NCBI GenBank assembly: GCA_036881885.1
Contig: JBAJNL010000001.1
Coordinates: 2,377 to 66,376, forward strand
DNA: 64,000 nt
Origin: Holosporaceae bacterium
GTDB taxonomy: Bacteria; Pseudomonadota; Alphaproteobacteria; Holosporales; Hepatobacteraceae
Reading direction: 5' to 3'
Shown: positions 7,371 to 59,236 of the stretch, one piece after another
How positions within the stretch are numbered: the first letter of the stretch is position 1
How the letters are laid out: each line of letters starts with the position of its first letter
Notes under the pieces: model-generated
What the model saw: only the letters and a program-made list of their open reading frames with translations
Told to the model about the DNA's origin: nothing
Databases searched by the model: none
Made by a program: the position numbers and the translations under genes

Positions 7371-7412
7371 CGTCCTAGTGCTGGCATGTCCCTAAACGTT
7401 ATTGTTTTTTTT

Positions 7413-7478
7413 GGCGTGTGCAAGGCATTCTCCACCATGCGTAAGTTTAGAAAATTTTTAAGCAAAATCAAGTTAACC
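7413..7478 (+). repeat. Module C intergenic repeat, copy 1 of 4
   Basis: ...GGCATTCTCCACCATGCGTAAGTTTAGAAAATTTTTAAGCAAAATCAAG... is near-identical to the copies at 15655..15725(-), 46826..46900(-) and 55283..55345(+). Confidence 0.85.
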
Positions 7479-7532
7479 ATGCATCTTTTACATGTAAGAA
7501 CGAAGGTGCGGTGTGTGTTAAAATGCTTTCAA

Positions 7533-7704
7533 GTGGATCGCGCGGGGCTAAAGCCTTCTTGATGACGACCAAAGTGACGCGGCATTCCCCAAAACCGTCA
7601 TTGCGAGGAGCAGCGTGCTGCGACGCGGCAATCCATGTGTGCTTTGGCCGCTCAAGGTGCCCCGCAAGTGGATCGCGCGGGGTGCTGCCCACCTTCGCGA
7701 TGAC
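7533..7704 (+). repeat. Palindromic mosaic repeat array (modules B-D-A-B)
   Basis: The modules are B 7533..7566, D GTGACGCGGCATTCCCC, A 7597..7649 (GTCATTGCGAGGAG-N10-CGACGCGGCAATCCATGTGTGCTTTGGCC) and B 7668..7704 (GTGGATCGCGCGGGG-N9-CCTTCGCGATGAC). It lies between the convergent flgL and M23 genes. Confidence 0.9.
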
Positions 7705-7731
7705 AAGGGGGGGGGCGTTAAAGGCCTGCCT

Positions 7732-32645: not shown

Positions 32646-32750
32646 GTCATTGCAAGGAGAAACGTTGTTTCGACGTGGCAATCCACCTGTGCTTTGGCCA
32701 ATTGAGGTGCGCGGCAAGTGGATCACCCGGGGCTTCGCCTTTGCGATGAC
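32646..32750 (+). repeat. Palindromic repeat unit A-B
   Basis: GTCATTGCAAGGAG...CGACGTGGCAATCCACCTGTGCTTTGGCC is followed by GTGGATCACCCGGGGCTTCGCCTTTGCGATGAC. Confidence 0.9.
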
Positions 32751-38961: not shown

Positions 38962-39055
38962 GTCATGGCGAATAGCCCTTTGGGACACCGCGGCGTGCCC
39001 CTAAATCGTCATTGCGAGGAGAAATCTTGATTTCGACGCGGCAATCTATGTGTGC
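38962..39055 (+). repeat. Palindromic repeat (degenerate B, D, A)
   Basis: The order is GTCATGGCGAATAGCC, CCGCGGCGTGCCCC, then GTCATTGCGAGGAGAAATCTTGATTTCGACGCGGCAATCTATGTGTGC. Confidence 0.8.
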
Positions 39056-39187
39056 GTCACAGTCAAGATAGCTTTAAGCGTGTTTGCGGGCAGATCTGAC
39101 ATAAAAAGCGCATCACGCTTGGTCAAATCAGTGTTTGGTTTTTTTGCTTGAGGGGAGGGGGGCTCTTTTGATATAAAGGGGGTGTGT

Positions 39188-43641: not shown

Positions 43642-43777
43642 GTCATTGCGAGGAGAAACTTTGTTTCGACGCGGCAATCCATCTGTACTTTGGCCAACTC
43701 AGGTGCACGGCTAGTGGATCGCCACACGGCCGTTGGCCGTTCGCGATGACGATTTAAGCTGGTGCCTTCGCGATGAC
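43642..43777 (+). repeat. Palindromic repeat unit A-B plus extra B-end
   Basis: Module A spans 43642..43695, module B spans 43714..43750 and CCTTCGCGATGAC ends at 43777. Confidence 0.9.
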
Positions 43778-46641: not shown

Positions 46642-46825
46642 AAAAAGTATTTATAAAATTAATATTTATCAAATACTTATAAAAAATATTTCGTACAACT
46701 GTCAATAAGATCACAAAAAATGATAAAAATGCGACGCAGAAGCTCTATTGCAAACGTCCTTACAACCAGAAACCCAGGTTTTCGTGCGACCATCCGGTGT
46801 GCCGTCGCCACCACTATTTTGCCAA

Positions 46826-46900
46826 AACCAATTTAATGAATTGATTTTGTTTAAAAATTTTCTAAAGTTGTGAACGGTGGAGAATGCCCTTCGCGCGCAA
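46826..46900 (-). repeat. Module C intergenic repeat, copy 3 of 4
   Basis: The plus strand reads TTGATTTTGTTTAAAAATTTTCTAAAGTTGTGAACGGTGGAGAATGCCC. Confidence 0.85.
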
Positions 46901-46939
46901 AAAGAGAAAAAGTACAAGAATCGACGTCATAAACTGATA

Positions 46940-47182
46940 CCTTCGCGATGATGACCGGTAAGACGCGGCAGGCCCTCAAACCGTCATAACCCTTACAGCA
47001 GTGACATACTAAATCGTCATCGCGAAGGCGTGATAACGCCCCGCGCGATCCACAGGCAGCGAACTGAAGTAGCAAAAGCACACATGGATTGCCGCGTCGA
47101 AACAAAGTTTCTCCTCGCAATGACAACCCCAAAAAGCCATTCCCTCGTCATCGCGAAGGCGCGCAGTGCCTCGGGCGACCAC
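46940..47182. repeat. Palindromic mosaic array with mixed orientations
   Basis: The forward part comprises B-end(+) at 46940..46955, D(+) at 46958..46977 and a truncated A start. The reverse part comprises B(-) at 47016..47053, A(-) at 47072..47124 and a degenerate B(-) at 47147..47182. Confidence 0.8.
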
Positions 47183-49943: not shown

Positions 49944-50453
49944 ATGAAACAACTTAACAGCTTTTGGGCACTGCTCTTTGTCATGGGGCTTGTGTTCGCA
50001 GTGGCTCCGCTGTCGGCCAATGTGGGGCACGATATCTCACACTTTTTTAAGCATGATGTAGGGGGGGCCTTCAAAAAGTTTGGCAACATGACGAAAGACG
50101 CTGTAAACAAGGCAACGCACAAAATGGATCATGCCTTTAAAGATGCCCTGAGAGAGGCAAAAAAGCGCACGAATGATGCCATTCACTGGACCCGTGGTGC
50201 GGCCAAAACGGTGGGCAAAGGGGTTAAAAAAGGTGCCTATGCCACGCGTGATGCCGCCAAAGTGGTGGGTAAGGGTATTAAAACCGCAGCCTATGCCACA
50301 GGTAATGGCTTGAAAAAGTTTGGCAATTATATGTACGAACACCGTCAAGATATTTTGGACGGCACGATGACTGGCCTGGATAAGCTCCAAGACTTTGCCG
50401 ACAGCCCCGCAGGGCAAGTGCTTATGGAGGAGGCGCCTGAAATGATGGCCTAA
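49944..50453 (+). CDS. small secreted Lys/Gly/Ala-rich repeat protein
   Basis: A GGGAGAAAG SD precedes the start, which is 13 nt after the preceding gene. It has a signal peptide (MKQLNSFWALLFVMGLVFAVAPLSA) and the tandem 18-mers AAKTVGKGVKKGAYATRD/AAKVVGKGIKTAAYATGN. Confidence 0.6.
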   Translation: MKQLNSFWALLFVMGLVFAVAPLSANVGHDISHFFKHDVGGAFKKFGNMTKDAVNKATHKMDHAFKDALREAKKRTNDAIHWTRGAAKTVGKGVKKGAYATRDAAKVVGKGIKTAAYATGNGLKKFGNYMYEHRQDILDGTMTGLDKLQDFADSPAGQVLMEEAPEMMA

Positions 50454-55093: not shown

Positions 55094-55234
55094 GTGTCCC
55101 TTGGTATGATGTTGTTTGCAGGCATAAAAACAAGTCGTCTGATTACTTAACTTATTCAAAAAGAAAGCCTCTCAAACGTCAAGAGCACCCGTGACATCTT
55201 GTCAACACTTTATCATTGCAACGGCCCCTCTGCG

Positions 55235-55374
55235 TCATAGCGAAGGTGCACGCTCTTGTTGTGTGTAGGTTTTGTTGTTTTAGACGCGCGCAGGGCATTC
55301 TCCACCATTCGCAAGTTTAGCAAATTTTTAAACAAAATCAAGCAAAAAGTTCACCACGTCATCGCGAAAGCGCT
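55235..55374 (+). repeat. Module C copy 4 of 4, flanked by half-modules of the palindromic family
   Basis: GTCATAGCGAAGG lies at ~55235..55250. Module C spans 55283..55345 (GGCATTCTCCACCATTCGCAAGTTTAGCAAATTTTTAAACAAAATCAAG). GTCATCGCGAAAG lies at ~55358..55370. Confidence 0.85.
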
Positions 55375-55396
55375 CAACACACCCCTGTCATGTGTT

Positions 55397-58961: not shown

Positions 58962-59205
58962 ATCATTGCAAGGAGAATGGTTTCGACGCGGCAATCCATG
59001 TGTGCTTTAGCTGTGTGGGCTCACAGGTTGTTCTTGCGACCCCGCTCACTTTTTTCTCTTTTAGATTTTTTTAGTGCGCGCGGGGCTACGCCTTCGCGAT
59101 GACGTTCTTTCTTGTCATTGCGAGGAGCCTCTTAGGGCGACGCGGCAATCCAGTGTGCTTTGGCCGCCTAAGTTTCTGGCATGTGGATCGCGCGGGGCTG
59201 CGCCC
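58962..59205 (+). repeat. Palindromic mosaic array (A, degenerate B, B, A, B)
   Basis: The recognisable modules are A at 58962..59011, B at 59063..59092, A at 59104..59154 and B at 59173..59205. Confidence 0.9.
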
Positions 59206-59236
59206 TCGTGATGACAGGCTTGAGGTCAGTGTGGTT

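Follow-up and report, generated by a model that had tools for sequence, protein, structure and literature searches.

CGTC-tagged hairpin repeats in a Holosporaceae genome as probable partners of an Ssn-type nuclease

The intergenic repeats described here probably form a lineage-specific family of CGTC-tagged REPs, or Ssn-related motifs (SRMs): on sequence comparison, they are best explained as the multiplied, ORF-less partners of an Ssn-type nuclease. Because no ssn/GIY-YIG ORF lies within the window (the whole 64-kb stretch of Holosporaceae DNA that was analysed), we infer that this enzyme is encoded elsewhere in the genome. The kind of repeat is known, and its link to the nuclease is not new, having already been described by Chenal et al. 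in 2025 (Nat Commun 16:2388; PMC11893778); the sequence variant is uncatalogued.

Two published families frame this interpretation. CGTC-tagged REPs (Di Nocera, De Gregorio and Rocco 2013; BMC Genomics 14:522), which include Neisseria dRS3 (CGTC-1) and Rickettsia RPE-4 and RPE-6, are recognized by an unpaired CGTC tag (TGTC and CCTC are allowed), a stem that starts with A,T and an unpaired tail of the CCA type, and the published members have an 8-9 bp stem and a 4-5 nt loop within a total of 20-40 bp (PMC3733652). They occur at high copy number as intergenic inverted dimers near 3' ends, mostly between unidirectional or convergent ORFs, and the 2013 survey placed them in five phyla, mostly in alphaproteobacteria (PMC3733652). 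SRMs are present as hundreds of ORF-less copies in intergenic DNA, and the gene for their partner Ssn, a single-domain GIY-YIG nuclease of ~95 aa, is itself flanked by SRM/NTS motifs (PMC11893778). Ssn binds the hairpin strand only as ssDNA, and the cut falls a few nucleotides upstream of the head; its recognition is both sequence-specific and structural, with determinants that were mapped by mutagenesis to a GTC before the palindrome, the palindrome itself and a C right after it (PMC11893778). In Neisseria, this cutting restricts incoming transforming ssDNA (PMC11893778).

Repeat modules in the window

The terminus GTCATYGCGARG, with at most one mismatch, occurred 22 times in the window, compared with 1.0 ± 1.0 expected from 100 dinucleotide-preserving shuffles (maximum 5). 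Profile searches with nhmmer, using A and B profiles derived from copies in the window itself, resolved 10 A and 11 B modules, plus fragments. Individual modules are 34-56 nt long, and eight complete A+B units of 102-142 nt lie with their heads outward beside four head-to-head junctions. All ten loci named in the preliminary description of this DNA were recovered, each of them intergenic in the ORF map, including half-sites at 55235-55374 that are present but give marginal matches (E 0.05-0.08). Total coverage, at 1,594 nt or 2.5% of the window, fell short of the ~2 kb proposed earlier. The features are as follows (E values are from nhmmer; z-scores are relative to shuffled sequences).

7533-7566, minus strand: solo B module (E 2.3e-6); head at right end, head-to-head with the A module at 7597 across a 'D' piece
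7573-7594, plus strand: 'D' piece GTGACGCGGCATTCCCC, direct-repeat family D7; corresponds to the 3' half of a third, degenerate type of module, of which 14254-14297 is a fuller copy
7597-7704, plus strand: full A+B unit, heads outward; A 7597-7650 (E 4e-17), spacer, B 7668-7704 (E 4e-8); folds with a terminal stem, RNA z -2.4
14114-14140, plus strand: degenerate B-like half-site (ATCATCGCGAACAGCC..), read from the sequence, with no significant profile match
14143-14252, minus strand: full A+B unit; B 14143-14181 (E 1.7e-7), A 14198-14252 (E 5.9e-17); DNA z -3.5, RNA z -3.7 and -3.9
14254-14297, minus strand: degenerate module resembling A (GTCATGGTGAG..GACGCGGCATGCCCC), from which the 'D' piece derives (A profile, E 0.018)
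15537-15572, minus strand: solo B module (E 1.4e-4); head-to-head with the A module at 15582 across a 9-nt gap
15582-15637, plus strand: solo A module (E 3.5e-19)
15804-15825, plus strand: 'D' piece (GTAACGTGGCATGCCCC), repeat family D7
15827-15932, plus strand: full A+B unit; A 15827-15879 (E 3.5e-15), B 15896-15932 (E 6.5e-9); RNA z -3.3; 15 nt from the 3' end of a tRNA-Ser
32646-32750, plus strand: full A+B unit; A 32646-32700 (E 4.5e-18), B 32718-32750 (E 1.4e-6); between glmU and a substrate-binding-protein gene
38962-39000, plus strand: degenerate third-type module (GTCATGGCGAAT..GCGGCGTGCCCC), read from the sequence
39008-39058, plus strand: solo A module with truncated tail (E 1.3e-15, profile positions 1-50 of 55)
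43642-43750, plus strand: full A+B unit; A 43642-43696 (E 2e-19), B 43714-43750 (E 2.4e-6); downstream of pth; RNA z -3.4 on each strand
43764-43777, minus strand: B-module head fragment (CCTTCGCGATGAC; E 0.047), exact terminus match
46939-46980, plus strand: B head fragment (46939-46951, E 0.27) and 'D' piece (repeat family D7)
47016-47124, minus strand: full A+B unit; B 47016-47053 (E 9.2e-9), A 47070-47124 (E 2.5e-19); DNA z -2.7
47147-47180, plus strand: solo B module (E 2.8e-7), head-to-head with the unit at 47016-47124
55234-55251, plus strand: marginal B head half-site (E 0.054), terminus with one mismatch
55358-55382, plus strand: marginal B head half-site (E 0.084), terminus with one mismatch
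58962-59103, plus strand: A+B unit with a long spacer (~58 nt); A 58963-59013 (E 1.4e-16), B 59072-59103 (E 1.1e-5); DNA z only -0.6
59114-59215, plus strand: full A+B unit; A 59114-59166 (E 1.3e-15), B 59183-59215 (E 3.1e-6); head-to-head with the preceding unit across a 10-nt gap

Module B had been taken for the reverse complement of A. It is instead a related, distinct and shorter type, with a stem that reads ATCGCG..CGCGAT rather than ATTGC..GCAAT. The third piece, 'D', does exist, but it is the 3' half of the degenerate third module type, seen more fully at 14254-14297 (minus strand) and 38962-39000 (plus strand), and not a unit of its own.

Module structure and folding

All modules are hairpins with a defined orientation. 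From an unpaired head, (C/T)GTC, they pass into a lower stem of 5-6 bp that starts with A,T (type A, ATTGC..GCAAT; type B, ATCGCG..CGCGAT); an internal loop comes next and, above it, an upper hairpin of 3-6 bp that varies, and a C and a CCA tail come after the stem. Among the 21 modules the heads are CGTC (11), TGTC (8), GGTC (1) and TATC (1), so that GTC was read in 20. The C lies directly after the stem in 10/10 A and 9/11 B modules, and the tails read ..AATCCA in nine of the ten A modules and ..GATCCAC in nine of the 11 B modules.

Both tiers of the hairpin show evidence of conserved pairing. In the upper stem of the A modules, four of five pairs carry compensatory changes on both sides, and 96.6% of cells are paired versus 84% in shuffles (0/500 shuffles reached the observed value). 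The lower stem covaries across genomes: in loci that were retrieved by protein alone, we counted ATTGC..GCAAT 127 times, ATCGC..GCGAT eight times, ATTCC..GGAAT seven times and ATCCC..GGGAT three times. The A:B long hairpin was considered as the functional unit and rejected, because this covariation is confined to single modules and the differences between A and B weaken pairing between them.

The preliminary description asked whether the hairpins are more stable than shuffled controls. As RNA, whole units folded better than shuffles (z -1.5 to -3.9), about equally on the two strands. As DNA, the same units gave a mixed result (z -0.6 to -3.5), and single A modules folded weakly as ssDNA (-4 to -7 kcal/mol; z +0.4 to -1.2), no better than their shuffles.

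The compensatory changes in the upper hairpin and the negative RNA z-scores are features that a family of structured non-coding RNA genes would also display. We regard such genes as an extremely improbable source of the repeats: the two strands fold about equally well, copies are inconsistently oriented relative to their neighbours, and there is no interaction between SsnA and an RNA version of its motif (PMC11893778). Rfam searches of the whole window at the gathering threshold, and of positions 7500-7730 at E ≤ 10, returned only three tRNAs and noise.

Genomic placement and arrangement

All ten arrays are intergenic, as had been claimed, and they occupy six unidirectional, three convergent and one divergent region. 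No module in the window lies within a gene; the preliminary description had named in-frame copies inside conserved proteins elsewhere as evidence against an intergenic REP. The modules lie 5-27 nt from gene 3' ends, and this placement, in these contexts, is the pattern described for CGTC REPs (PMC3733652).

A position just past gene ends is also what one would expect of orphan or host-serving REPs, that is, repeats of CGTC/SRM descent that have lost their nuclease partner and whose A:B hairpin serves to terminate transcription, to influence RNA stability or to bind a protein. The better-than-shuffled RNA folding of whole units on both strands, the lack of an ssn gene in the window and the absence of ssnA from ~19% of SRM-rich genomes (PMC11893778) all fit this alternative. 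It is nevertheless unlikely in our judgement. In the unidirectional contexts inspected, the transcribed strand shows no run of T after the hairpins; the GTC of the head and the C that follows the stem, conserved in nearly all modules, are positions important to Ssn for cutting and binding and not to an RNA hairpin; and ssn-like genes of other genomes are closely flanked on both sides by this module class.

Within arrays, modules alternate in orientation, either as heads-outward A+B units or at head-to-head junctions, which bears out the preliminary description of a REP/BIME-like mosaic of small, palindromic, intergenic modules. These doublets and their alternation resemble REPINs and BIMEs, and could suggest that a single-copy Y1 (HUH) transposase of the RAYT type, encoded elsewhere, recognizes the hairpins and multiplies the doublets. 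Several observations make this highly improbable. The heads are CGTC or TGTC, not GTAG; no tyrosine transposase with flanking CGTC repeats came to light in the 2013 survey (PMC3733652); and scans with NCBIfam or Pfam found no transposase domain in 20 repeat-adjacent proteins of the window, in agreement with the earlier statement that the window lacks a RAYT or other transposase. In 120 repeat-bearing loci from other genomes, the GIY-YIG gene was the only shared one to emerge.

The inverted termini of the 100-110 nt units (GTCATYGCGARG/CYTCGCRATGAC), together with the presence of cargo (a gene or a ~450-nt non-coding insert) between the same termini in other genomes, would be compatible with a classical MITE of the Correia kind, namely an insertion sequence that has lost part of its interior but kept terminal inverted repeats (TIRs), is mobilized by a DDE transposase acting in trans and duplicates its target site. 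The details speak strongly against such an origin, and we give it very little credence. The 12-nt flanks of 8/8 A+B units contained no common direct repeat that would indicate target-site duplication, solo modules and head-to-head junctions are found as often as complete units, and the covariation lies within modules, not between the two ends. The sole recurrent cargo gene encodes a nuclease of an ssDNA-cutting family and not a transposase.

Association with GIY-YIG nuclease genes in other genomes

Evidence for an Ssn-type partner comes from loci outside this genome. At three of these (L071, L010 and L022), modules on the left and on the right enclose a cd10448-type PF01541 GIY-YIG gene of ~95 aa. 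The protein at L071 shares 43% identity with the gonococcal SsnA orthologue (E 9e-25), and it conserves Y6, Y17 and E64, residues that were mutated in the Ssn study (PMC11893778). Neither PADLOC nor NCBIfam supplied a specific name for the GIY-YIG protein. Naive ORFs at such loci read through from a module into the nuclease gene.

The bracketing recurs widely. Among the 71 metagenomic loci with ≥150 nt on either side of the GIY-YIG gene, a left terminus lay ≤200 nt upstream in 59, a right terminus ≤200 nt downstream in 58, and both in 51. Up to 250 nt from the gene there were 4.78 modules per kb, and at more than 400 nt 0.15 per kb, a 31-fold difference. CGTC/TGTC hairpins also adjoin the GIY-YIG gene in nine of ten loci from named organisms. 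When 1,912 ORFs from the 120 repeat-bearing loci were clustered all-against-all, the largest cluster spanned nine loci, and no protein common to these loci, other than GIY-YIG, turned up. A RAYT, which the preliminary description suggested looking for, is not the right enzyme for this class: its published partner is Ssn, a nuclease of the GIY-YIG type (PMC11893778), and the loci of other genomes analysed here show that bracketing too.

An HMM built from 51 GIY-YIG-flanking modules connects these loci to the window. It matched eight of the ten window A modules at E ≤ 0.003, with the unit at 59114-59215 as its best match (E 1.6e-6), and window B modules only at E 0.2-0.3. The published SRM pattern, HGTCWYN(0-2)YYVSBRHN(0-5)WNVSBRGN(0-2)RNCYNB (PMC11893778), had no match in the window (0.14 expected), and a loop-relaxed version found only two unrelated sites (0.9 expected). 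Nor did the published pattern match anywhere in 80 metagenomic GIY-YIG loci, though 67 of the 80 carry the module class. Because the published search sequence matches nothing in the window, SRM membership of the modules rests on the shared determinants and on our own HMM.

Distribution beyond the window

The A-module pattern gave more than 120 matches in genome contigs from many phyla (~14, judged from record titles), and more than 120 stretches in viral contigs, so the family extends outside the window, as the preliminary description required. The tail specific to the window's A modules (GGCAATCCA..TGTGCTTTGGCC) was absent from the repeat-bearing loci and viral contigs that were fetched. A search of the literature for the repeat sequence strings yielded chance primer matches only.

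Close relatives of the genome are few. Among homologues of GlmU, we found a 98%-identical strain in one pair of Logan samples and a 62%-identical relative in a TARA ocean sample, the rest being ≤47% identical. Contigs of the 98%-identical strain end inside the unit at 32646-32750, the behaviour expected of a multi-copy repeat. In 14 kb of the 62% relative, there were no such repeats. Repeat DNA of this kind breaks assemblies and can generate false ORFs.

Proposed mechanism and significance

With its flanking motifs, ssn has the look of a mobile element that has been domesticated and whose motifs have increased in number, and the A and B modules would be the multiplied, ORF-less partners of an Ssn-type nuclease with its gene in another part of this genome. 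By analogy with Ssn, such a nuclease would cut beside the modules when replication, DNA uptake or repair exposes them as single strands. Since Ssn recognition is sequence-specific as well as structural, cutting of the window modules cannot be assumed. As a side effect, the modules would be transcribed along with genes, at the 3' ends of mRNAs, and there the long A:B hairpin may influence the ends of transcripts.

A broader proposal, on which we are evenly divided, is that the two-tier GTCATTGCGAG..GCAATC modules constitute a major uncatalogued class of SRMs, spread over many phyla, including bacteria of the candidate phyla radiation, and phage contigs, and served by their own Ssn clade with a new ssDNA cleavage specificity; in this genome, the two module types, always paired as A/B heterodimers, would then be read by one enzyme of relaxed specificity or by two. 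If this is true, Ssn-motif systems are considerably commoner than in the 2025 census, and the modules represent a new recognition site for site-specific ssDNA nucleases.

With these repeats, a poorly sampled lineage of bacteria joins the probable hosts of Ssn/CGTC-REP systems. The repeats also indicate that the published SRM definition is too narrow, given that it misses the module class present in most of the metagenomic ssn-like loci (67/80), and that a wider definition would alter estimates of how frequent nuclease-repeat pairs are. Every additional pair offers a candidate enzyme that cuts ssDNA site-specifically at a new recognition sequence, and it is in such enzymes that the practical interest of the Ssn family lies.

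Comparison with known systems

Correia elements are MITEs of the TIR type, with 26-nt TIRs, a duplicated TA target and an IS-like ancestor. The window units share with them a size of ~100-150 nt, an intergenic palindromic character and co-transcription with neighbouring genes, but they lack a target duplication, and each of their halves is an independent hairpin module; the closest Neisseria relatives of the modules are dRS3/NTS, not Correia. The in-frame Rickettsia palindromic elements encode peptide inserts within ORFs, whereas the window arrays are intergenic without exception.

The REP/BIMEs of E. coli belong to the GTAG-tagged superfamily served by RAYTs (PMC3733652). Window modules resemble REP/BIMEs and REPIN-RAYT systems (E. 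coli, Pseudomonas) in being short imperfect palindromes with an unpaired tag, arranged in mosaics of alternating orientation, and the module class, as seen in other genomes, resembles them in having a single-copy nuclease gene that is itself flanked by repeats. The differences are in tag (CGTC instead of GTAG) and in probable enzyme (a GIY-YIG nuclease instead of a Y1 HUH transposase), and there is no sequence relationship. Of the parallels drawn in the preliminary description, that to REP/BIME therefore survives in outline but not in tag or enzyme, that to Correia fails for want of a duplication, and that to Rickettsia elements applies to RPE-4 and RPE-6 only (PMC3733652).

The likeness to CGTC REPs is closer, and includes the unpaired CGTC/TGTC head, the A,T stem start, the CCA tail, the inverted dimers (often heterodimers of two stem types) without an adjacent transposase, and the intergenic position near 3' ends, with 9/10 arrays here in unidirectional or convergent regions; the 64 kb of this genome hold 21 modules. 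In contrast to the simple 8-9 bp stem and 4-5 nt loop of the published repeats, the window modules are two-tiered and 34-56 nt long. Published dimers are mostly head-to-head, whereas heads-outward (tail-to-tail) units are frequent in the window, and the A-module pattern occurs in many more phyla than the five of the 2013 paper.

SRMs differ from the window modules in that their published degenerate pattern matches none of them, and the window lacks an ssn gene. What the two have in common is an oriented hairpin with GTC before the palindrome (20/21 modules) and C after it (10/10 A, 9/11 B), and, for the module class as seen in the loci of other genomes, a motif-gene-motif bracket around a cd10448-type GIY-YIG gene.

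Two module types in the window

The window holds 22 copies of the 12-nt terminus GTCATYGCGARG (≤1 mismatch), compared to 1.0 ± 1.0 in dinucleotide-preserving shuffles. Profiles made from the window's own copies identified ten A modules (E 2e-19 to 3.5e-15), 11 B modules (E 6.5e-9 to 1.4e-4) and four marginal fragments, and recovered all ten loci named in the preliminary description. The repeats, which are real and REP/BIME-like as that description held, cover 1,594 nt (2.5% of the window) and, as it also stated, are intergenic at every locus on the window's ORF map. Eight A+B units, with heads facing outward, span 102-142 nt; the other modules are solo or lie head-to-head with a neighbour.

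Starting from the head, A modules run (C/T)GTC-ATTGC-GAGGA-(variable hairpin)-GACGCG-GCAAT-CCA, then TGTGCTTTGGCC, and B modules run (C/T)GTC-ATCGCG-AA-(variable hairpin)-(C)CG-CGCGAT-CCAC. Their lower stems differ by one compensated change, T-A in A and C-G in B. Given these differences in lower stem and sequence, B is not simply the reverse complement of A, as had been proposed, but a second module type. The short 'D' piece that often precedes A represents the 3' half of a degenerate module, the third type (14254-14297, 38962-39000).

Covariation within the modules

The lower stem is invariant in all ten A modules, while four of the five upper-stem pairs have changed on both sides. Upper-stem cells are paired in 96.6% of cases versus 84% in shuffles (0 of 500 as high), and slid registers gave only 15-64%. 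Across 80 loci chosen by protein similarity alone, lower-stem combinations were ATTGC..GCAAT (127), ATCGC..GCGAT (8), ATTCC..GGAAT (7) and ATCCC..GGGAT (3), with few mismatched combinations.

The stability over shuffles expected in the preliminary description was seen for whole units as RNA (both strands, z -1.5 to -3.9), was mixed for whole units as DNA (z -0.6 to -3.5) and was lacking in single A modules as ssDNA (z +0.4 to -1.2). Five of seven single B modules as ssDNA reached z ≤ -1.7. Because single A modules fold no better than shuffles, their hairpin is supported by covariation, not stability; thermodynamics is the weaker witness to module structure.

Genomic context

Arrays occupy six unidirectional, three convergent and one divergent intergenic regions, typically 5-27 nt past the 3' end of a gene. 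A transposase had been reported absent, and none was present among the 20 repeat-adjacent proteins scanned, which are housekeeping or unknown (including GlmU, Pth, M23 peptidase, UvrA, FliK-like and MlaD). Direct repeats flank no unit in the window; this lack of target duplication, together with the covariation within modules, makes it very improbable that the repeats are TIR-type MITEs.

Several other features of the window were also noted. A run of nine G directly follows unit 7597-7704 (window 7705-7716), between convergent genes, and could be slippage-prone. A second, unrelated ~75-nt repeat (core TTGATTTTGTTTAAAAATTTGCTAAACTTGCGAACGGTGGAGAAYGCC) has four copies, always beside REP arrays:

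7402-7472, ~75-nt repeat, one orientation
55272-55342, ~75-nt repeat, same orientation
15650-15721, ~75-nt repeat, opposite orientation
46820-46894, ~75-nt repeat, opposite orientation

By eye, it contains a -35-like TTGATT, then 16-17 nt and a -10-like TAAACT, a pair absent from promoter scan output; the repeat could represent a small RNA gene or an element that carries a promoter. The 361-aa protein at 16160-17245 (minus strand) includes a lysine methyltransferase (SET) domain (Pfam E 5e-6); such domains are not common among bacteria, and host-associated species often carry them. Lastly, the 169-aa ORF at 49944-50453 contains a 54-nt (18-codon) tandem repeat of 76% identity at 50190-50297.

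Distribution beyond the window

The A-module pattern GTCATTGCRAGGAG-N6-16-GACGYGGCAATC matched more than 120 stretches in contigs of one genome per species. Judged from titles, the matches listed span about 14 phyla, among them Chloroflexota, Bacillota, Patescibacteria, Bacteroidota, all proteobacterial classes, Planctomycetota, Spirochaetota and Actinomycetota. Among the matches listed, 76 of 142 left modules have an inverted partner giving a 70-160 nt unit and about 50 are solo. More than 120 stretches also matched on IMG/VR viral contigs; among those listed (L216-L335), a single locus has a GIY-YIG ORF, without flanking modules. The motifs may travel from host to host on phages or prophages, or these contigs may have been wrongly classed as viral.

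The window's own lineage is barely sampled: the closest GlmU match (98%) is from one Logan sample pair, the next (62%) is from a TARA sample with no repeats in its 14 kb, and no further match exceeds 47%. Two short-read contigs of the 98%-identical strain (L201 1-40, L202 1-10) end inside the unit equivalent to window 32646-32750; the repeat disrupts assembly, as a high-copy element would be expected to.

A GIY-YIG nuclease gene between modules

In three of 120 genome loci among the matches listed (Phycisphaerae, Oscillospiraceae and Falkowbacteria), the 'loop' between left and right module contains a PF01541 GIY-YIG gene of ~95 aa. We scanned metagenomes for relatives of the bracketed protein and used the best 80 of 560. 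Among the 71 of these loci with ≥150 nt on both sides, a left terminus lies ≤200 nt upstream of the gene in 59, a right terminus ≤200 nt downstream in 58, and both in 51. Up to 250 nt from the gene there are 4.78 modules per kb, versus 0.15 per kb beyond 400 nt, and the median gap between a module's inner end and the gene is 28 nt on the start-codon side and 8 nt on the stop side.

Using tblastn against plasmid records and mislabelled chromosome records, we inspected ten named organisms. The gene is flanked by the organism's own CGTC/TGTC hairpins in nine (N. gonorrhoeae, with dRS3; S. meliloti, N. aromaticivorans, A. lipoferum, Sphingobium, Shinella, Aeromonas caviae, Planktothrix and Spirosoma) and lacks them in R. 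tumorigenes. The bracketed protein of L071 is 43% identical to the gonococcal orthologue (E 9e-25), with Y6, Y17 and E64 kept.

Individual loci show further arrangements. In Azospirillum lipoferum 4B plasmid AZO_p3 (254912-256387, L209), an ssn-like gene, flanked left and right by a REP dimer, sits between sufB and sufC, within a normally tight operon. In a Sinorhizobium meliloti record (L207, labelled pSymB), where tblastn placed the gene twice, a repeat of the gene's last ~50 nt and its downstream REP directly precedes the intact copy and is left over from a second unit in tandem. In a Falkowbacteria MAG (L022 2350-3150), a ~165-nt insertion with inverted ends (GTTACAAAACTATTT..) that looks like a MITE splits the ssn-like gene, which REP modules still flank. 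Elsewhere the left and right modules enclose, in place of the gene, some 440-520 nt of conserved non-coding cargo:

L088 5062-5497, plus strand, non-coding cargo, second genome contig
L063 5142-5665 and 5747-6195, plus strand, non-coding cargo, Desulfovibrionaceae MAG contig

Relation to published systems

CGTC-tagged REPs, defined by Di Nocera et al. 2013 (PMC3733652), have a CGTC or TGTC head, an A,T stem start and a CCA tail, occur mostly in alphaproteobacteria as inverted dimers near 3' ends of genes, include dRS3 and RPE-4/-6, and are stated to lack a dedicated transposase. RAYT-type REPINs are a highly unlikely identity for the window repeats, as these carry the wrong tag and the 2013 survey did not find a tyrosine transposase flanked by CGTC repeats. 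The partner came from Chenal et al. 2025 (PMC11893778): SsnA, a 94-aa cd10448 GIY-YIG protein that restricts transforming DNA in N. meningitidis. Its target, the NTS motif CGTCATTCCCGCGMAVGCGGGAATCYRG, is bound only in single-stranded form, and the cut falls a few nucleotides upstream; cutting depends on the GTC ahead of the palindrome, and binding on the C that immediately follows it. RNA, dsDNA and the opposite strand do not serve as substrates. The gene sits in an NTS-ssnA-NTS unit, a motif lies near 71% of homologues, and 81% of motif-rich genomes have the gene (PMC11893778). The bracketing described here is therefore an independent rediscovery of a published link. That the repeats are ncRNA genes is the least credible alternative, as no Rfam family matches them, they show no strand preference and the enzyme ignores RNA.

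The published search sequence for Ssn-related motifs (SRMs) had no match in the window (0.14 expected) and none in the 80 metagenomic loci (best 80 of 560), 67 of which contain our module pattern; it matched six of ten named proteobacterial-type loci. An HMM trained only on 51 modules flanking ssn-like genes detected eight of ten window A modules at E ≤ 0.003 (best 1.6e-6), and window B modules at only E 0.2-0.3. The A modules thus belong statistically to the set bracketing ssn-like genes.

As established elsewhere, class motifs are ssDNA hairpins recognised and cut by Ssn, whose gene they bracket. By extension, the window modules would be served by an Ssn homologue encoded outside the window, their arrays would stem from multiplication of an ORF-less form, and the long A:B hairpins may also influence the 3' ends of mRNAs. 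That they are instead orphan or host-serving hairpins without a nuclease is unlikely, though the most plausible of the alternatives.

Together, the window modules have the determinants and placement of the class. They share the head, A/T stem start, CCA tail, dimer arrangement and placement of CGTC REPs, but not the simple 8-9 bp stem and 4-5 nt loop; like SRMs, they keep the three mapped Ssn determinants (GTC, palindrome, following C). The family and its enzyme are already described; the new contribution is modest and consists of a two-tier sequence variant not yet catalogued, the occurrence of A/B heterodimers in a poorly sampled lineage, and evidence for a widespread variant class that the published search pattern misses.
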